Source: Bacteroidales bacterium
GTDB taxonomy: Bacteria > Bacteroidota > Bacteroidia > Bacteroidales > WCHB1-69
Reading direction: 5' to 3'
Length of the DNA stretch: 64,000 nt
Assembly: GCA_017962275.1 (NCBI GenBank)
Contig: JAGCVQ010000028.1
Location: 3,740 to 67,739, forward strand
Positions 20,106-60,114 of this stretch are shown piece by piece. Position numbers and translations under genes: made by a program. Below the pieces are notes generated by a model, which saw only the letters and a program-made list of their open reading frames with translations, was not told the origin of the DNA and ran no database searches. Positions within the stretch are counted from its first letter, which is position 1, and each line of letters starts with the position of its first letter.

Positions 20106-20133
20106 AGAAATTTGTTGGTTTGTTGTACTTCGG

Positions 20134-20221
20134 CCAATGACTATATAGTCAAGTGCCTGTGACTATATAGTCATGAGCCAATGCCTATATAGTCATGAGC
20201 TGATGCCTATATACGTTTACG
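20134..20221. repeat. four tandem 22-bp units carrying the palindrome GACTATATAGTC
   Basis: Units start at 20134, 20156, 20178 and 20200. Two have a perfect 12-bp palindrome and two are degenerate. Confidence 0.85.
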
Positions 20222-28734: not shown

Positions 28735-28896
28735 CAAAAAAACAATATGCGCAGAAGACGCTGTTTTAAATCACATAGGCTCGCGCATCAACTTTTTATT
28801 TGGGCACCCCAGCGCGGCGGGACGCCCGAATAAAAAAAAATGATGCGGAAGCCCTGGAGAGCAAGTCGAGAAGGTTAGTAAAAGTACAAAATTTTG

Positions 28897-28904
28897 TATT
28901 TTTG
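28897..28904 (+). promoter_or_regulatory. -7 promoter box TAttTTTG upstream of the dgkA remnant
   Basis: Homologous in position to the box at 37602. Confidence 0.45.
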
Positions 28905-28924
28905 CCCCCTCAAATAATTGCGGG

Positions 28925-29179
28925 ATGAAAAAACAGGAGAAATTTTCGATTAAGAAGCGGCTGAAAAGCTTCACTTACGCATTCAACGGGTTGAAAGTGC
29001 TCTTCCAAGAGGAACACAACAGCCGGATACATCTTTTTGCGACCATTTGTGTCATCGTGGCGGGTGTGCTGCTCAAGCTGTCGTTGCTGGAGTGGGCGGC
29101 CGTCTTGGTGAACGCCATCTCTGCCGCCGCCATCGGGTTGCTGGTCTTTATCCCGAGAATCATACATCTTTTCCCATAA
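28925..29179 (+). pseudogene. diacylglycerol kinase paralog with an in-frame 42-codon internal deletion
   Basis: Both 84-aa ends align to DgkA at 37641..38021. The block containing EIFNSSIEDLAD is missing. Confidence 0.75.
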
Positions 29180-29200
29180 TATTACGAACATTGGCATTTT

Positions 29201-29228
29201 GTAGAGACGCAAAATTTTGCGTCTCTAC
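29201..29228. terminator. 28-nt perfect palindrome GTAGAGACGCAAAATTTTGCGTCTCTAC
   Basis: Perfect 14-bp arms, and an identical copy lies at 38036-38063. Confidence 0.6.
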
Positions 29229-29315
29229 ACGCCCGAAAATCTATACAGCAATTTCAAGAAAACCCTCACCCCTGTTCCATATTGCCTGTTCCCAGTTGCC
29301 TATTGCCTCAAACCC

Positions 29316-30296
29316 ATGTTTCTCGGTGAACTAATCTCCCTTTTCGTCGCCCTTTCGTGGACCGCCACCGCCCTTTTCGCGGAGGTGGGTTCGAAGCGCA
29401 TGGGTTCGTTGCCGTTCAACACGATACGGATGACGATGTCGCTGCTTTTCCTCGTCCTCACGCTTTGGTTGGTGATGGGCGTTCCCTACCCGCGATTCGC
29501 CGACGGCGGCACGTGGGGTTGGTTGCTGCTCTCGGGGGTGGTCGGCTACGTCATCGGCGACTATTGTTTGATGCAGGGTTACATCCACATCGGGTCTCGT
29601 TTCGGACAGCTCTTCATGACCCTTTCCGCGCCCACGGCGGCCATCACCGGACGGATTCTTCTTGGCGAGCAGATGCGCCCGATTGCCATCCTCGGCATGG
29701 TCGTCACGTTGAGCGGTATCGCCCTCTCCATTCTTTCCAAAAGTGATGATTCCGAGCATCGCGGCATTCGTTTCAAACTCCCGGCTAAGGGTGTTTTTTA
29801 CGCCGCGATGGCCGGTATTTGCCAAGGTTTCGGATTGGTACTCAGCAAGGTGGGACTCCAACACTACGACGCGGCACTCGCAGTGCTCAACATTTCCCAA
29901 GACGCGGTCTTCGAAGGTGCCATACTGCCGTTGCCCGTCAGCATCTGCGTGCCCTTCGCCGCCACCACCATTCGCGGCTACATCGGGTTGGCGGGCTTTT
30001 TCGTGTCGTTGATGCTGTTCAGCAAAGACGGATTAGCGAAGCTACGTAGTGCTCTTCGCGACCGCAAGGCGATGTGGTGCGTGTTCGCCTCCACCATCTT
30101 TGGACCCTTCATCGGGGTCAGCGCATCGCTGCTGGCCACCCAATACACTACTGCGGGCATCGCCCAGACGCTCTTCGCCCTCACCCCAATCCTCATCATC
30201 GCCCCGTCGGCCTTCCTGTTCCATCAGAAAGTGACACTGCGAGAGGTGATTGGCGCGGTAATCAGCGTGGTAGGAGTATGTCTGTTTTTCATATAG
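29316..30296 (+). CDS. DMT superfamily (EamA-type) transporter
   Basis: About ten TM segments and duplicated EamA-like halves. Start is at the internal ATG after the repeat region. Confidence 0.75.
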   Translation: MFLGELISLFVALSWTATALFAEVGSKRMGSLPFNTIRMTMSLLFLVLTLWLVMGVPYPRFADGGTWGWLLLSGVVGYVIGDYCLMQGYIHIGSRFGQLFMTLSAPTAAITGRILLGEQMRPIAILGMVVTLSGIALSILSKSDDSEHRGIRFKLPAKGVFYAAMAGICQGFGLVLSKVGLQHYDAALAVLNISQDAVFEGAILPLPVSICVPFAATTIRGYIGLAGFFVSLMLFSKDGLAKLRSALRDRKAMWCVFASTIFGPFIGVSASLLATQYTTAGIAQTLFALTPILIIAPSAFLFHQKVTLREVIGAVISVVGVCLFFI

Positions 30297-33527: not shown

Positions 33528-36500
33528 TTAGTTATCAGCTTTTAGCATTTTTTTCGATATTGCTCCTTTATCGGTTTGTATCCGCACCAAATAGGCACCC
33601 TTGGCGAGGCCGGAGACATCGATGCGGATTGTCTGTAGGGGAGAATAATTATTCGCCCCTACAACGATGCGAACCAATTTGCCGTAAACATCATACACTT
33701 CAATGCCGAGGATGCGCAGGTCGGGGTCCGTCACGCGAATATCCATGTAGTCACGAGCGGGGTTCGGGTAGAGAAGAACGACTTTTTTCAAACGCAAATA
33801 CTCTGCCACACCAACCGAGTCAACATCCGTCAAAAAATGGACTGTCTCTGACGGCATATCAGGATTACAGACCGCCACAACATAACAATCGTAAGAAGTT
33901 TCAGACTCCAGATTCTGCAAAGTGTAAGTCAGGCTACCGGGACACACGGTATCGACCTGCCATATAGAGTCGGAGGAAGGCTTGTAACAGACCAGGTAGG
34001 TTGTGGAGTCCGTCTGAGAATCCTGCCATACAACCACAGCGGAAGTGCTTGTGACATCCTGGACTGTCAGTTGCGACGGAATCGCACATGGAAGATTGTT
34101 GTTATACGCTATTGTCAGACTGTCTATGTATATATCGTAGTAAGATGACATAAAATTGTACGAATAAGGATTTGGATCCCGAAATGCGATATAAGTCCCG
34201 TTGCCCTCATATTCGAAAAACGGTACGGTGACAAAGACAAATGCTTTCTGGATACTGTCCAAAGTCCGAACAAATGTAAAGGTGGATGGATCTGTCGGAT
34301 CCGTCATCACGCCCACCTCCAATCTTGAACCGGCATATTGATCACCCCGAGCATTATATAGGTAAAACGAAATCTGTAGTTCGTGAATGTCCAAATATTC
34401 GGAATTCACATACGGCATCACTGCTATGCTCCCTTCGCTGTTATAGAACACCAGAGATTGACTGCCGGAATAGGGATGCCACTGCTCCACACGGGGATAG
34501 CTTGGGTTGTATGCGTAATTTCCCACTATGCGTGACCAACAGGGCTGCATCTCGTTAAGTGTGGCATCCTCGAAGTCCCAAGTCTGCGGAACGGAGATGA
34601 TATCGTGCGGACATCCTGTAGAGAAGAAGGCTGTGAATGATGGAACTTCAGGACTACATAAAGCCACAATGTAATATTCGTAAGAGGTAAATGGAGTCAG
34701 ATTATCAAACATGAACGATGTCGTGTTTGTCGTGTCAGATTGCCAAGCAACCGTGCCAACTTGTCTGTGAAAGACAATATATTGGGTGGAATCGGCATCG
34801 TGAGTCCAAGAAATAACAGCCGAACGTCCGGTTTCATTCAATAAAACAGGATTTGTGGGACGCGGGCAGTCAGGTGTCTTCATTAACGTCAAATTGTCCA
34901 TGAAATATCGGCTGTAACTGGCATCTCGGAAGGCGATGTATTTTCCTGTTCCCGAATAAGATGACAAATCGACATCAAAAAGCTGGTATTCGTAAGATAT
35001 ATCATTCAAACTTTTTATTAAAGAGAATGTTGACGCATCTGTCGGATCTGTCATTACTCCAATATCCAAAGTCGCATTTGAAGCATATCCATCGTATGCT
35101 TTCAAATAGAAAGAAAGTGACAACTCATTAGTTTGTAACGTATCCGATAATACTGGCAGAACAACAATACAACCATGTACGAGAGAAAAATATAACGATT
35201 TGCTGCCACTGAATGCCCAATTTTCATTATCATAGACATACGGAGTGTAGTTGTTTGAATAGCCGGAATAAGTTTTTAAAAATTCCCAACAATCAGGCAA
35301 GGGACTATCCGCAGTGCCGCCGCTGTTGTTATTCTCGAATCCCCAGAACATGGGAACGGAATCGATTATTCCGCATACCGTGGAAAAGATAAATGGCTCG
35401 GAGAATGCCTCCGGATAGCATCCTGCAGCTACGCGCACTTCGTATGTTGTGTTTTGGAGTAAACCAGAGAGGGTCACCGTAGGTGTGCTAATGACAGCGG
35501 TCGTGTCATAAAGGACGGTGTTTCCACCAATAGGCTTATACTCAACTATATACCATGTCGAATCGGCGTCATGCGACCAGCTCAAATCCGCAGAAGTCAA
35601 TCCGACATCAGTCAGTGAAATATCTATCGGACGCGAACAACCCGGCATCATCTGTATTTTCAAATCATCAACAAAAATATAGTGTCCTGGCGATCCGCAC
35701 AATTTCATGGCGATGTGCGTTCCTGTGCCATTATAAGCACTCATCGGTACATCATAAAAATGATAAATGTACGGAACAATTCCTTCCACTGTGTCCACCG
35801 CCACAAAGGTACTCACATCCCATGGATCAGACATCATACCAAAAATCAGCTTTTGATTTGATGATGCCAAGTATGCCATCGCCTTGAAGCTGATCATCAA
35901 ATCATGAATCGGCAAAACGGAAGTGTCAACTGCGGGCAACACCATAGCGTAGTTAGAGTTAGACCCATGGGACATGACGAGAAAATGGTTACCTGCTTCA
36001 CTGTTTACATATCCAGATCCATACGCGGATTGCTGCGAAGTGCAAATCCAACATTCCGGCAGGGGCATGTTCACTGTACCTGCTGTGTTATTGGTTTCAA
36101 AATCCCAAAAATAGGGCACCGTGCTGATTGCATCGCAGAGCGTAGATACGGCTATAGTGTTCGAAACCAACGATGTGTCGCATAATGGAGCTACAAAAAC
36201 CTCGTATGTGGTGGATGCCGACAGATTTTCTAACTCCAATGAGTTTTCCACAGGTTGTACTATAACCGTTTGCCAAACAGTATAGCCCTCTTCTCGGTAA
36301 GAAACCGACACTTGAGAACCATCAGCGGGGAAGCCTATTCCATGCAATAATACAGTATTTGCGGTAGGATGAGAATAGGAGATGGCGGACGGGCGTTGAC
36401 AATCCGGAATGGTATCCAACACCATATCGTCTATATATATCGTAGTTGCCGTAGCACCTGGGTTCTGTATGGCGATATAGGAACCGTCACCTTCATAATC

Positions 36501-36980
36501 TGTAAAAGGGATGTCGTATGTCTGATACTGATCCGTAAACTGTGTGATGGTGTATATTGGCGTGAATGATTCCGCACTATCAGGGCTGGTCATCACGCCA
36601 ACAACAAGCTGCACAGTTTTAGTCTCTCCATAGTTTGGATCTTTTATCGCCTTAGCAGCAAAGGATACTTGCAGATGACTCAAGGACAGAACATTCGTGT
36701 CAATTCTCGGAAGCACCACGGTGCCGAGGTCGAAGTTGCTCAACAACAAGCTATGGGTGCCAGATGGAGGATTCTGTCCTTCCGTAACATAAATGAAATA
36801 GCTACTGTAGGGAACAGGAAGATTCCAACAGGCTGGTTGTATATGGTTGTTGGCCACCACCGTGTTGCCCGTCTCAAAGTCCCAAAGCTGTGGCAAAGAA
36901 GTGATGACACAGCTGTCTGTCTGCGCCACGCCCGCCACCGCTGCACAGACAACAAACCATAATATCCAAAACTTTTTCAT
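33528..36980 (-). CDS. 1150-aa modular T9SS cargo with four (choice-of-anchor-J-like plus FN3) modules and a C-terminal sorting domain
   Basis: Signal peptide. Each module opens with a W(D/G)FE motif (LWDFE, FWDFE, FWGFE, TWDFE); the first three are followed by C-x-RP and an FN3-like segment, and the fourth by a looser L-P-C-A-I-P linker plus an FN3-like segment. CTD is LYPNPARDYM...YLVRIQTDKG. Confidence 0.85.
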   Translation of the reverse strand: MKKFWILWFVVCAAVAGVAQTDSCVITSLPQLWDFETGNTVVANNHIQPACWNLPVPYSSYFIYVTEGQNPPSGTHSLLLSNFDLGTVVLPRIDTNVLSLSHLQVSFAAKAIKDPNYGETKTVQLVVGVMTSPDSAESFTPIYTITQFTDQYQTYDIPFTDYEGDGSYIAIQNPGATATTIYIDDMVLDTIPDCQRPSAISYSHPTANTVLLHGIGFPADGSQVSVSYREEGYTVWQTVIVQPVENSLELENLSASTTYEVFVAPLCDTSLVSNTIAVSTLCDAISTVPYFWDFETNNTAGTVNMPLPECWICTSQQSAYGSGYVNSEAGNHFLVMSHGSNSNYAMVLPAVDTSVLPIHDLMISFKAMAYLASSNQKLIFGMMSDPWDVSTFVAVDTVEGIVPYIYHFYDVPMSAYNGTGTHIAMKLCGSPGHYIFVDDLKIQMMPGCSRPIDISLTDVGLTSADLSWSHDADSTWYIVEYKPIGGNTVLYDTTAVISTPTVTLSGLLQNTTYEVRVAAGCYPEAFSEPFIFSTVCGIIDSVPMFWGFENNNSGGTADSPLPDCWEFLKTYSGYSNNYTPYVYDNENWAFSGSKSLYFSLVHGCIVVLPVLSDTLQTNELSLSFYLKAYDGYASNATLDIGVMTDPTDASTFSLIKSLNDISYEYQLFDVDLSSYSGTGKYIAFRDASYSRYFMDNLTLMKTPDCPRPTNPVLLNETGRSAVISWTHDADSTQYIVFHRQVGTVAWQSDTTNTTSFMFDNLTPFTSYEYYIVALCSPEVPSFTAFFSTGCPHDIISVPQTWDFEDATLNEMQPCWSRIVGNYAYNPSYPRVEQWHPYSGSQSLVFYNSEGSIAVMPYVNSEYLDIHELQISFYLYNARGDQYAGSRLEVGVMTDPTDPSTFTFVRTLDSIQKAFVFVTVPFFEYEGNGTYIAFRDPNPYSYNFMSSYYDIYIDSLTIAYNNNLPCAIPSQLTVQDVTSTSAVVVWQDSQTDSTTYLVCYKPSSDSIWQVDTVCPGSLTYTLQNLESETSYDCYVVAVCNPDMPSETVHFLTDVDSVGVAEYLRLKKVVLLYPNPARDYMDIRVTDPDLRILGIEVYDVYGKLVRIVVGANNYSPLQTIRIDVSGLAKGAYLVRIQTDKGAISKKMLKADN

Positions 36981-37557: not shown

Positions 37558-37584
37558 AATGATGATTTTTAATTATTGAATCTG

Positions 37585-37592
37585 CAAAAATA
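37585..37592 (-). promoter_or_regulatory. -7 promoter box TAttTTTG (minus strand) for the FMN reductase/cargo unit
   Basis: Reverse complement of CAAAAATA. Lies back to back with the box at 37602. Confidence 0.45.
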
Positions 37593-37601
37593 CAATTTTT
37601 G

Positions 37602-37609
37602 TACTTTTG
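37602..37609 (+). promoter_or_regulatory. -7 promoter box TActTTTG for dgkA
   Basis: 32 nt upstream of ATG 37641. Confidence 0.5.
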
Positions 37610-37640
37610 CCCCCTGAAAAACTTGCGGATTCAAAAAACA

Positions 37641-38021
37641 ATGAAGGGACAGGAGAAATTCTCGATTGCGAAGCGGCTGAAAAGCTTCACCTACGCGTTC
37701 AACGGGCTGCGGATCCTCTTCAGGGAGGAGCATAACAGCAGGATACATCTGTTCGTGACTGTCTGCGTCATCGTCGCGGGCGTGCTGCTCAAACTGTCGA
37801 TTCTGGAATGGGTGGCCATTGCGTTTGCCGTCGGGCTGGTCTTCAGTGGCGAAATTTTCAACTCTTCCATTGAAGACCTTGCCGATGTGGTCTGCCCCGA
37901 ACGCGACGATCGCATCAAGAAGGTCAAGGATATGGCGGCCGCGGCCGTGCTGGTGAACGCCATCGCCGCCGCAACCATCGGATTGCTGGTCTTCCTCCCG
38001 AAAATTATACGTTTATTTTAA
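37641..38021 (+). CDS. dgkA: diacylglycerol kinase (prokaryotic DgkA family)
   Basis: 126 aa, 3 TM helices and an EIFNSSIEDLAD signature. Confidence 0.88.
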   Translation: MKGQEKFSIAKRLKSFTYAFNGLRILFREEHNSRIHLFVTVCVIVAGVLLKLSILEWVAIAFAVGLVFSGEIFNSSIEDLADVVCPERDDRIKKVKDMAAAAVLVNAIAAATIGLLVFLPKIIRLF

Positions 38022-38035
38022 TAATTTGGTTTTTC

Positions 38036-38063
38036 GTAGAGACGCAAAATTTTGCGTCTCTAC
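38036..38063. terminator. 28-nt perfect palindrome, second copy
   Basis: Identical to 29201-29228. Confidence 0.6.
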
Positions 38064-38126
38064 ACCCACGGAAATTTATCCAGAAATTTCAAAAAAAACC
38101 CTCAACCTTTTGCCTCTTGCCTAAAA

Positions 38127-38825
38127 TCAACACCGCAGCATCTTTTCCCGTAGCTGCGTGTAGCCGGCTTCGTTGAAACGGTATTGGATAGGGGAGTGCG
38201 GCGACTTTTTCTCCTCGTCGCTCTGTGCCACGGGGGTCAAGATGCCCGACGACAGGAACTTCTTTTGGAAGTTGCGGCGGTCGAACTCCTTGCAGAAGAC
38301 GTGCGTGTAGAGCCGCTGCATCTCCGGCAGGGTGAAGATGTCGTCTAAAAGGAGGAAGGCGACAGGGGAGTTGATGAAGGCGAGGCGCAGCTTCCAGAGG
38401 GCCATGCGGCAGATTTTCTCGTGATCGAAGGCCAGCCGGGGCATCTCGTGGATGTCGAACCAGCGGGCCTCTTTGGCATCGTCGCCGGCGACCGCCCGTA
38501 TCTGGTTCGGGCGCACGACCGACGCAAACGCAACGGTGATGGTGCGGCCTCGCGGGTCACGGTCCAAATCGCTGAACGAACCCACCTCGTTGAAGAATTT
38601 CGGGGTGAGTCCGGTCTCCTCTTTCAGTTCGCGGCGTGCGGCCTCCTCCAGGGTCTCGTTCTCGTCCAAGAATCCTCCTGGGAACGCCCAGCAGTCCTTG
38701 TACGGCTCATGTCCACGCTTGATTAACAGCACGTTGAGCCGTGTGCCGTCAAAACTGAACACCACAACGTCCGCCGTCACTGCCGGCCGCCAATAATCAT
38801 ATTGATATGTACCTTTTTCGCCCAT
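38127..38825 (-). CDS. NUDIX hydrolase with C-terminal winged-helix-like domain (NrtR-like architecture)
   Basis: Nudix box GGFLDENETLEEAARRELKEETGL. Start is at the internal ATG (MGEKG). Confidence 0.75.
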   Translation of the reverse strand: MGEKGTYQYDYWRPAVTADVVVFSFDGTRLNVLLIKRGHEPYKDCWAFPGGFLDENETLEEAARRELKEETGLTPKFFNEVGSFSDLDRDPRGRTITVAFASVVRPNQIRAVAGDDAKEARWFDIHEMPRLAFDHEKICRMALWKLRLAFINSPVAFLLLDDIFTLPEMQRLYTHVFCKEFDRRNFQKKFLSSGILTPVAQSDEEKKSPHSPIQYRFNEAGYTQLREKMLRC

Positions 38826-45456: not shown

Positions 45457-46566
45457 ATGAAAAAAGCACTGACAATCAGCATTTTGTTAATAATATGTTG
45501 GATGGGATCCCTCTCCGCGCAAATCCAGCATTTTCCTTGGCAGGGCGTGGAACGCGAATACCTCATCCGCACTCCTGCCAATCACGACGGCTCATTGCCC
45601 GTGCTCTTCTTCCTGCACGGGTTGGGCGACAACATCACCAATTGCGACCAGGAGTTCCACTTCGGCCAGATAGCCGAGGAGTTCGGGTGGGCGATTGTGG
45701 TGCCGCAGGCTCGCAACCAAGGCATCGGCACCATGTGGAACGCCGGACTGATGAGCAGCACTATCGATGATGCCGGGTTCCTGATGGCCCTCCTCGACTC
45801 GCTAACGGTCCAGTATCAGCTCGACCCCGACAGCGTCTTCTTTACAGGATTTTCGATGGGAGGATTCATGTCGCATCGCATGGCCATCGAGCATGGCGAC
45901 CGCATCACCGCCTGTGCGCCCGTGAGTGGACTGATTACCAACGTGGATGCCGCGCAGACGCCCGTCGCGCCTGTGCGGATGCTCCACATCCACGGCACCA
46001 GCGACAATGTGGTGGGCTATAACGGATACTCTTCTGTTTTCGGTATGAACCTTGGTCTCGGGGTAGATGCCATCCTTGATTATTGGCAGAATGCCAACGG
46101 CTGCACTGGCGAACCCGCCATCGACACCCTTCCTAACCTTAAGAACGACGGGCTGCGTTTCATACGCTATACATACAACTGCGGCACCGACCTGCAACAT
46201 TTGAAAGTCGTGGGTGGCACCCATAACTGGTATGATGTAAACCACAATGATATCGGATACAAAGAGGTTATTTACGAATTTTTCACTGGACACAGTCTCC
46301 CGTCAAGCGTTCCAGACCGTAAGACAGGCTATCTGCAGGTCTGGCCTAACCCCACAAACGGCATCCTCAACATCCAGAATGCGGATCCCGATGCTTCGGG
46401 AATCCAGGTGTTCGACATGAATGGTAATATGGTGGATGTTATTGTAGGGGTGAATAATGATTCGCCCCTACAGACCGTACAAATCAACCTCTCCCGCTAC
46501 CCTGACGGCGTCTATTTCGTGCAGACAGGGGACGGAACGGTGGCAAAGGTGGTGGTGAAACGGTAA
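45457..46566 (+). CDS. secreted esterase of the PHB-depolymerase/CE1 (LpqC-like) family with T9SS C-terminal domain
   Basis: Signal peptide, VLFFLHGLG, the GFSMGG nucleophile elbow, and a CTD (VWPNPTNGILNI...VYFVQTGDG). Confidence 0.8.
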   Translation: MKKALTISILLIICWMGSLSAQIQHFPWQGVEREYLIRTPANHDGSLPVLFFLHGLGDNITNCDQEFHFGQIAEEFGWAIVVPQARNQGIGTMWNAGLMSSTIDDAGFLMALLDSLTVQYQLDPDSVFFTGFSMGGFMSHRMAIEHGDRITACAPVSGLITNVDAAQTPVAPVRMLHIHGTSDNVVGYNGYSSVFGMNLGLGVDAILDYWQNANGCTGEPAIDTLPNLKNDGLRFIRYTYNCGTDLQHLKVVGGTHNWYDVNHNDIGYKEVIYEFFTGHSLPSSVPDRKTGYLQVWPNPTNGILNIQNADPDASGIQVFDMNGNMVDVIVGVNNDSPLQTVQINLSRYPDGVYFVQTGDGTVAKVVVKR

Positions 46567-46650
46567 ATGTTTTTCTTGTCCGATTCTCGTCACACCCTCG
46601 CCACACTCCCCCTCTTCTCTCGTTTTTGTTTCGCTCGTTCTTCGCCCGCG

Positions 46651-46705
46651 AGCGACAGAAGAGCGACAGAAGAGCGACAGAAGAGCGACAGAAGAGCGAC
46701 GCAAT
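46651..46705. repeat. 11-bp tandem repeat AGCGACAGAAG, four perfect units plus one partial
   Basis: Read directly. It lies between convergent genes. Confidence 0.9.
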
Positions 46706-59984: not shown

Positions 59985-60114
59985 CCCATATCGTACCCAT
60001 AGGTTTCCCATAGTGTACCCATACTGATGCCATACTCTTGCCATACTCTTAAGTATGGCTACACTATGGCTACAGTATGGCAACAGTATGGCATCTCCTT
60101 GCGAAGGGTATGGC
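59985..60114. repeat. dyad-symmetric array of 11-bp phased repeats (six CCATA units, then five inverted TATGG units)
   Basis: Motif starts at 59985, 59996, 60007, 60018, 60029 and 60040, and inverted at 60054, 60065, 60076, 60087 and 60109. Confidence 0.85.

Follow-up and report, generated by a model that had tools for sequence, protein, structure and literature searches.

Rickettsia palindromic elements (RPEs), which Ogata et al. are said to have described in 2000, are selfish palindromes that reportedly lie in frame in protein genes and are tolerated there because the residues they encode form surface segments and the protein otherwise still works; RPE-1 is said to be about 100–150 nt long, and RPEs to be scattered across unrelated genes at unrelated sites. 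The small dispersed repeats (SDRs) of Nostoc, reportedly described by Elhai et al. in 2008, are said to be mobile hairpins of 21–27 nt inserted in otherwise conserved sequence. Here we analyse two palindromes read in frame within the C-terminal sorting domains (CTDs) of two cargo genes of the type IX secretion system (T9SS). They lie in a stretch of 64,000 nt from a Bacteroidales bacterium (assembly GCA_017962275.1, contig JAGCVQ010000028.1, positions 3,740–67,739, forward strand), which we call the window. By sequence, both are 28-nt double-foot repetitive extragenic palindromes (REPs) of the kind tied to subclass 2.4 of the REP-associated tyrosine transposases (RAYT/TnpA_REP). Like RPEs, the CTD element keeps the reading frame and occupies a loop outside the core of the fold, 4–5 residues longer than in REP-less relatives (modelled loop, residues 330–338); unlike RPEs, it is 28 nt long and one loop of one domain family is occupied repeatedly. 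Nostoc SDRs differ from it in sequence and phylum and are not known to have a link to a protein domain or GTAG/CTAC feet.

Double-foot REPs are defined by a 5′ GT[AG]G foot, a 3′ C[TC]AC foot and a stem whose base consists of three G-C pairs; they are associated with TnpA_REP subclass 2.4, in Cyanobacteria and Bacteroidetes as well as in scattered phyla, and in-frame insertions have been noted (Quentin et al. 2018, PMC6006769). Our elements resemble them in the feet, in the three basal G-C pairs of what we call the GGGGC type, in their range (Bacteroidetes, Cyanobacteria and scattered phyla), in copies that sit in frame without breaking a gene, and in a REP-flanked RAYT-like gene (Dehalococcoidia locus L113, below). 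The in-frame insertions of that study are mainly in tnpA_REP genes, whereas ours are in the secretion-tag domain of many cargo genes; moreover, the CTD site alternates between variants, a second (GAGAC) type is without the three basal G-C pairs, and the Bacteroidales DNA that we searched held no RAYT. GTAG-tagged REPs, some of them wholly inside ORFs and adding about 10 residues or more, were surveyed in 8 phyla, with none in Bacteroidetes, and related Xanthomonas species carry different REPs at about one site in recB (Di Nocera, De Gregorio and Rocco 2013, PMC3733652). The CTD site is like these in being intragenic and in holding different REPs at about the same place in related genes; unlike it, GTAG REPs have one unpaired GTAG tag, are hosted mainly by replication and repair genes and occupy no domain-wide site. 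Our literature search, incomplete in its coverage, returned no paper that describes REPs in the CTDs of T9SS cargo. Intragenic REPs are known, as are double-foot REPs; a conserved site in T9SS CTDs at which REPs turn over appears to be undescribed.

Results

Two palindromes in the sorting domains of the window

The CTDs of an FN3-rich cargo protein and of an esterase match PF18962 (Table 1) above its curated cut-off of 27 bits, cover profile positions 1–73/74 of 75 and stand at the extreme C-terminus. These are the only ORFs of the window that match the CTD profile, and both carry a REP. A T9SS CTD is cleaved off following export. An earlier reading of the window, made from the sequence alone (the sequence-only reading), had placed two closely similar palindromes inside the CTDs of a minus-strand cargo gene and a plus-strand esterase gene, amid CTD codons not conserved at the nucleotide level. 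We confirm this account. A direct check of the sequence reproduced the positions and the pairing, and on the plus strand the 30-mers at 33634–33663 and 46443–46472 are identical at 28 of 30 bases; both lie within the PF18962 matches. When the two CTDs are aligned as DNA, 33 of 36 bases are identical across the palindrome and its immediate flanks and the remainder is much less conserved. A recent duplication of the whole CTD between the two genes is ruled out, since the CTDs flanking the palindromes are just 41% identical as protein.

Table 1. Coordinates and properties of the window features discussed in the text.
Feature	Position	Strand	Details
1150-aa FN3-rich cargo gene	33528-36980	-	FN3 domains and C-terminal PF18962 (Por_Secre_tail)
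T9SS type A CTD of the FN3 cargo	33546..33773	-	PF18962, residues 1070-1145, 52.3 bits
30-nt palindrome in the FN3 cargo	33634-33663		TGTAGGGGAGAATAATTATTCGCCCCTACA; 14/15 positions paired
Double-foot REP, GGGGC type, in the CTD of the FN3 cargo	33635..33662	-	sense GTAGGGGCGAATAATTATTCTCCCCTAC; VGANNYSPL; 13/14 pairs
Alpha/beta-hydrolase (polyhydroxybutyrate-depolymerase-like esterase) gene	45436/45457-46566	+	C-terminal PF18962
T9SS type A CTD of the esterase	46339..46554	+	PF18962, residues 295-366 of the 369-aa reading, 49.7 bits
30-nt palindrome in the esterase	46443-46472		TGTAGGGGTGAATAATGATTCGCCCCTACA; 13/15 paired; in the mRNA, one of the two mismatches forms a U.G wobble
Double-foot REP, GGGGC type, in the esterase CTD	46444..46471	+	GTAGGGGTGAATAATGATTCGCCCCTAC; VGVNNDSPL; 12/14 Watson-Crick pairs and one U.G
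Replaced tract	46396..46677	+	bovine-gut strain contigs (X26, X9, X12): divergent CTD allele, decayed REP; loose ends 46415, 46470
Intergenic double-foot REP, GAGAC type, perfect	29201..29228		GTAGAGACGCAAAATTTTGCGTCTCTAC; 20 nt past the stop of the internally deleted dgkA
Intergenic double-foot REP, identical 28-mer	38036..38063		GTAGAGACGCAAAATTTTGCGTCTCTAC; 13 nt past the stop of the full-length dgkA

A scan of the window for GTAG...CTAC palindromes found four, each exactly 28 nt long: the two CTD copies and two that follow copies of dgkA. All four begin with GTAG and close with CTAC, 12–14 of their 14 positions pair, and the length falls within the 20–40 nt criterion for hairpins; in both CTD copies GGG/CCC stands next to the feet. 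The degenerate 28-mer GTAGGGGNGAATAATNATTCGCCCCTAC matched the window at the two CTD sites only and gave 0 matches in 100 dinucleotide-preserving shuffles of the window, which rules out a chance origin of both palindromes. Translated in frame, the minus-strand copy gives VGANNYSPLQ and the plus-strand copy VGVNNDSPLQ. The same frame and peptides had been read before, but the shared frame is not independent evidence, because it is forced by stops: in these GGGGC-type copies frame 2 opens with TAG and frame 3 meets TAA/TGA in the loop, on either strand, so that GTA-GGG-... is the only stop-free frame.

REP identity, dispersal and the transposase link

The double-foot REP motif is widely dispersed. 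A genome scan with GTAGGGGNGAATNNNNATTCNCCCCTAC, one genome per species, matched at least 120 loci in many phyla; those listed are from Dehalococcoidia, other Chloroflexota, cyanobacteria, Desulfacinum, Planctomycetota, Omnitrophota, ruminant-gut Bacteroidales, Tannerella and others. Among the matches listed, the consensus is GTAGGGGCGAAT-(A/G)A(T/C)(T/C)-ATTCGCCCCTAC, and the two stem positions that the query leaves free are C and G in nearly all copies. A single Dehalococcoidia chromosome contributed at least ten of the listed loci, and copies in this class typically stand a few bases past a gene or between genes that converge. Of the REP copies in the 14 Bacteroidales loci listed, ten lie outside any ORF of whatever length. 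Our metagenome data agree with this: in bovine gut metagenomes that contain the window organism, contig depth over each CTD REP is 6- to 80-fold above neighbouring single-copy depth, and contig flanks beyond ~33631 and ~33665 form no consensus and go into many different sequences. The diversity of the flanks and the raised depth over the REPs fit a dispersed repeat. All Bacteroidales REPs that we saw are exactly 28 nt long, with constant 9-nt ends and a variable yet palindromic 10-nt centre, so that both arms stay complementary.

Some further observations concern the distribution of these elements. The sequence GTAGGGGCGAAT-NNNN-ATTCGCCCCTAC is almost letter-identical in Dapis, Okeania, Waterburya, Dehalococcoidia, Desulfacinum, Planctomycetota, Omnitrophota, Bacteroidales and others; this sameness may reflect horizontal spread of a REP/RAYT pair or a constraint imposed by the transposase. 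REPs of 28 nt occur in the loci L124, L125, L126, L129, L134, L138, L140, L143, L144, L147 and L148, and also in L179, L185, L201–L203 and at window positions 29201 and 38036. By eye, REPs of the GTAGGGGNGAATNNNNATTCNCCCCTAC type lie in frame in gene-like ORFs of other phyla (L036, L075, L097, L026, L119). Hosts labelled by eye are a cyanobacterial polyketide synthase linker, an isoleucyl-tRNA synthetase-like gene, a permease and a family 9 glycosyltransferase, together with the C-terminal part of a Bacteroidales methyltransferase-like ORF.

Evidence for a transposase partner comes from a Dehalococcoidia locus (L113, 4890–5526), where a RAYT-like ORF lies between two 28-nt double-foot REPs and is interrupted in frame by a third, forming a compact REPtron. 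The ORF has the motifs NHVH, WQ and YIVHNP. It matched NCBIfam NF047646 (REP-associated tyrosine transposase) with E 3.6e-21 and 75.6 bits, against a cut-off of 80, and only after the 9-residue REP insert had been removed; searches of Pfam and PDB sequences gave no match. A copy of the variant GGGGCGAAT lies 3 kb from this ORF. Between the paired REPs of L003, L028, L034, L038 and L100 we looked for a RAYT and found none, only ordinary genes.

One loop in many sorting domains

Orthologue searches with full-length queries yielded 120 esterase orthologues from ruminant gut Bacteroidales, with 95% to 56% identity. When CTDs with and without the segment are aligned, 75 of the 120 have a REP-derived segment of 9–11 residues at one and the same place in the alignment, after ..YGKLVDV and before QT.QIDLS. 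REP-less orthologues number 45; none of them exceeds 69% identity, and they have a turn 4–5 residues shorter, such as HELQPG. The 75 carriers comprise 30 sites of the form VG(A/V)N..SPLQ, 40 of the form V-E-T-x-x-x-x-S-L-Q (among them VETGRAPSLQ, VETCHGASLQ, VETRRAASLQ, VETMCTSSLQ, VETFYGASLQ and IETFQETSLH) and 5 that are more decayed. The FN3 cargo family shows the same mix of REP-bearing and REP-less CTDs, with many relatives carrying the site; in its DNA, intact REPs of three variants are present in five genes, and intergenic REPs again lie directly downstream. A full HMMER search with the cargo CTD against 1.84 billion representative proteins found the REP-derived loop in roughly half of the 150 closest CTDs, in proteins of 81 to 5320 aa, and the remaining half or so read ..LINTVNVIDNPT.. 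at the loop. All ten REP carriers that we scanned have a full-length PF18962, accompanied by FN3, by Cleaved_Adhesin or by no other domain; the multi-domain matches P0213, P0233, P0294 and P0321 contain no REP-like peptide. A word-indexed protein search with the 82-aa CTD gave 3 candidates, including a carrier (P0001) and a REP-less relative (P0002). The site, which had been described as a matter of two genes, is thus a feature of a whole CTD subfamily, and the two window copies have many further counterparts, both coding and intergenic.

One more ORF with this loop was noted in a goat abomasum Bacteroidales (L005:5027–6442). A perfect REP occupies the same loop of its PF18962-like domain, which is placed upstream of a Fib_succ_major domain in one open frame, and a second ..NNDSPLQ.. 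remnant follows further on. Read-through may have joined two genes here, or the CTD may be an internal one.

An AlphaFold2 model of the esterase, built with 26 orthologues (mean predicted local distance difference test score, pLDDT, 78), predicts that the REP-coded residues 330–338 form a loop between the strands 325–329 and 339–344. The pLDDT is ~56 in this loop and 81–83 on its flanks, so the loop before the last CTD strands, where the segment had been placed from sequence, is also its modelled position, at low confidence. REP-less orthologues have a tight turn there.

Could the segment simply be a motif of the CTD protein, with the palindrome as a by-product of codon choice? It does lie in frame at one place in many CTDs, and V-G-x-N-x-x-S-P-L-Q recurs. 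However, save for the residues dictated by the feet, the site peptides are unrelated (VGANNYSPLQ, VETGRAPSLQ, VETMCTSSLQ, VETRHGTSLQ, VETFQETSLH), and no peptide is conserved by way of synonymous variants that destroy the palindrome. The codons are always those of the REP, the same 28-mers are also intergenic and are found in phyla that lack T9SS, and the model gives a loop of low confidence. We find a protein motif barely credible. The sequence-only reading had offered, as one of two explanations, exaptation of a palindromic element of REP or MITE (miniature inverted-repeat transposable element) type; that a REP lies in coding sequence is supported, but exaptation is not shown; the peptide at the site is unconserved and dictated by the palindrome.

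Exchange of variants at the site

Site DNA from 80 esterase orthologues on metagenome contigs shows that the contents of the loop turn over. L124 has the perfect 30-mer TGTAGAGACGGGGCGCGCCCCGTCTCTACA, and the identical REP recurs 50 nt past its stop codon. A perfect GTAGGGGCGAATAATTATTCGCCCCTAC is found in L126 and L128, and additional palindrome variants in L123, L127, L130, L135, L147 and L148. In the FN3 cargo family, the site of L203 likewise holds a perfect GTAGGGGCGAATAATTATTCGCCCCTAC, that of L201 holds GTAGAGACGCGCCATGGCACGTCTCTAC, and L202 contains two ATGT(A/G)CACAT variants. Intergenic 28-mers on the same contigs have the form GTAGAGACG-N10-CGTCTCTAC, and their centres (GGGCGCGCCC, CGCCATGGCG, TTTCATGAAA, GTGTGCACAC and others) correspond to the site peptides. 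Even between orthologues at 88–93% protein identity, site contents are unrelated in 14 of 35 pairs (40%). Throughout, the 3′ junction CTAC-AG-ACN keeps the same register, and GAGAC-type variants at the site are always in the V-E-T frame, while by hand translation the third frame is also open in an intergenic GAGAC copy. The constant register and frame fit replacement in place rather than fresh insertions. In L202:1–6177, the CTD sites of two tandem FN3 cargo genes both hold the ATGT(A/G)CACAT variant, as gene duplication or conversion between neighbours could produce.

Three comparisons point to such replacement. First, L147 and L148 are 100% identical over 192 nt before the site and 170 nt after it, and their sole difference in these ~400 nt is a ~40-nt tract centred on the site (GTAGAGACGATGTGTACGTCATCTCTAC vs GTAGAGGCGAATAATCATTCGCCCCTAC, with a 3-nt difference in length). 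The tract includes two synonymous changes in a Leu codon 10 nt upstream (CTA GTG GAT GTA ATC vs TTG GTG GAT GCG). Since upstream CTD codons were replaced along with the REP, the donor was CTD-coding DNA, not a bare REP, and the sequences indicate short-tract gene conversion. Second, L201 (809 aa) and L203 (1814 aa) differ in architecture and in the site; they are ~87% identical just upstream of it and unrelated further up, and switch to 99.5% identity for ~230 nt from the 3′ foot of the REP onward. Third, contigs of close bovine-gut strains are identical to the window up to ~46400 and again past ~46677, and between these points carry another allele whose site reads VEMGRATSPQ, as in P0003 (Table 1).

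A perfect tandem repeat, GAGCGACAGAA × 4.6, lies at window 46650–46700, just past the esterase gene, and forms the right-hand end of the tract replaced in these strains. Metagenome contig depth is several-fold higher over it, so the unit must be repeated elsewhere.

These exchanges raise the question whether the REP site is itself a recombination hot spot, at which the hairpin, or nicking by a RAYT, provokes breaks or template switches that shuffle the 3′ halves of CTDs and the DNA downstream. The three comparisons above would fit, as would the window against L121, where identity is 83% upstream and 99–100% in the site and downstream, and hybrid sites with one arm from each type (P0020, VETNNYSPLQ; L148). 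The genes are mosaic in general, however: L147 and L148 are 93% identical overall, in patches, and further breakpoints lie away from the site (L136/L140, ~40 nt downstream). An ungapped comparison of flanks is confounded by indels and gives no null for breakpoint enrichment, the cases are a handful, and no RAYT is shown in these genomes. We regard a hot spot as unlikely, though worth keeping in mind; it would be compatible with the origin proposed in the Discussion and would add a causal, possibly adaptive role. The stronger idea that the REP is the working part of a shuffling device, in which hairpin breaks or RAYT nicks at the feet drive exchange of the site and the distal CTD between cargo genes and strains, strikes us as distinctly doubtful.

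Decay of the site and the hairpin in the message

Many sites have lost their symmetry. Among 23 esterase lineages with the site, nine pair at 12–14 of 14 positions, three at 10–11 and eleven at 6–9; REP-less CTDs score 3–6 of 14 at the equivalent place. Many proteins have fixed a form that lacks the 3′ foot (..VGANNDSPTQINV.., ..VGANNYSPIRINV..), and partial tandem duplications occur at the site, e.g., VGANNVGANRVGANNYSPLQ. In the esterase orthologues P0024, P0026 and P0028 the left REP arm is partly duplicated in tandem (IVGANNVGANNYSPLQ, IVGANNVGANRVGANNYSPLQ), in a way that suggests slippage within the palindrome.

This decay bears on the proposal, also made in the sequence-only reading, that an RNA hairpin is selected in CTD-coding mRNAs, for ribosome pausing, message stability or transcription attenuation, with the stem kept by compensatory change. 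The predicted hairpins are indeed stable (-17.6 and -21.5 kcal/mol, z -4.2 and -5.0, with 0 of 200 shuffles as good; the equivalent REP-less region has z 0.1). In addition, the esterase copy has a U.G wobble in its sense strand, variants differ on both arms, which amounts to covariation at the family level, and intact sites are more conserved than their flanks. Against this, the eleven poorly paired lineages (≤9 of 14) keep both the ORF and the length of the loop, and about half of the closest CTDs are without a REP and never had one. Substitutions that would preserve a stem in the message are not favoured: at the 16 sites with ≥10 pairs, the mismatches are 6 sense G.U, 8 antisense G.U and 2 other, small numbers with no bias to the transcribed strand. 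The two-arm differences are replacements of whole variants, shared with intergenic copies, and not stepwise compensation; intergenic copies of the same elements are equally conserved. There is also no T-run after the stem, which rules out an intrinsic terminator; the sense strands of the two coding copies continue CAGACAATCCGC and CAGACCGTACAA. A single metatranscriptome run gave three short divergent contigs, none of them over a REP. Selection for an mRNA hairpin thus seems highly improbable to us.

Other repeats of the window

The two intergenic REPs belong to a segmental duplication (28880–29330 and 37570–38160) that takes in a promoter region and dgkA as well as the REP. An in-frame internal deletion of 129 nt has left the first dgkA with 84 codons, against 126 in the other. 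The REPs of the duplicates are identical at 28 of 28 bases; over the whole alignment, with the 129-nt gap counted in, mean column identity is 77%. The architecture of these REPs had been equated with that of the CTD palindromes. The GTAG/CTAC feet and the 28-nt length are shared, but the intergenic copies are of the GAGAC type, which has both feet but not the three basal G-C pairs. Elsewhere in the window we noted an inverted repeat at 59986–60113 (62-nt arms, 71% complementary, 4 nt apart) and a cluster of overlapping TATATAGTCATGAGC-type repeats at 20130–20213.

Discussion

Based on these findings, we propose that the palindromes are REPs tolerated in a permissive loop of a cleaved T9SS tag: inherited with the domain, exchanged by short-tract recombination, decaying between exchanges and with no sign of a selected function in the mRNA. 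We give this account a probability of about 0.68. The ancestor of one T9SS type A CTD subtype (..(Y/F)DVYGK(L/V)V..) would have gained an in-frame REP at the turn between two strands, just before the strand ..T.(R/Q)I(N/D)(V/L)S.. and the GxYFV motif, presumably through a single old insertion in each CTD lineage, in which a RAYT may have had a part. The insertion would have been tolerable because the element is read in its one stop-free frame, only ~4–5 residues are added to a loop, and the CTD is removed after export. Since then the site has passed down together with the CTD, and a wide range of cargo genes now carry it. Short-tract recombination or gene conversion replaces one REP variant by another, with the feet and the CAG-ACN register kept. 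Between such renewals, uncompensated point mutations and small deletions or duplications erode the site. On this account the site would be neutral, and its persistence would reflect tolerance together with the general processes that homogenise REP families; no role of the hairpin for mRNA or protein is demonstrated.

Several results weigh against this proposal. A search for the HUH...Y motif in the window and ~95 Bacteroidales loci found no RAYT gene, and for this reason the transposase link in the window organism depends on the literature and on another phylum. Lineage pairs that share a variant are identical at 141 of 150 site bases vs 772 of 954 bases of flanking CTD (Fisher p = 2e-5), a comparison biased in that the pairs were chosen for sharing a variant. 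The REPs behind the two dgkA copies are likewise identical in duplicates that align at only 77%. Intact REPs thus seem to be kept intact in coding and non-coding DNA alike, by selection or by homogenisation. Both CTD genes of the window carry a REP and several palindromes in coding DNA are perfect, which pure neutral decay would not predict unless renewal is frequent. Finally, REP-less sister CTDs read VNVIDNPT at the site with no visible target duplication, and the original insertion cannot be reconstructed from them.

For annotation, our findings mean that VGANNYSPLQ, VETxxxxSLQ and many small "hypothetical proteins" that run through such hairpins are translations of REPs and not motifs. For engineering or tagging of T9SS cargo, they mean that in this CTD subtype the loop that precedes the last strands takes almost any 9–10 residues. 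If the REP site does provoke recombination, it would offer a natural system for gene conversion triggered by a small palindrome inside coding DNA; and if the REP were the working part of a shuffling device, a mobile element would be shaping the evolution of T9SS secretion tags in gut Bacteroidales. The host range of double-foot REPs now extends to ruminant gut Bacteroidales, where a 28-nt repeat has turned into a heritable, exchangeable part of a domain found in many secreted proteins.

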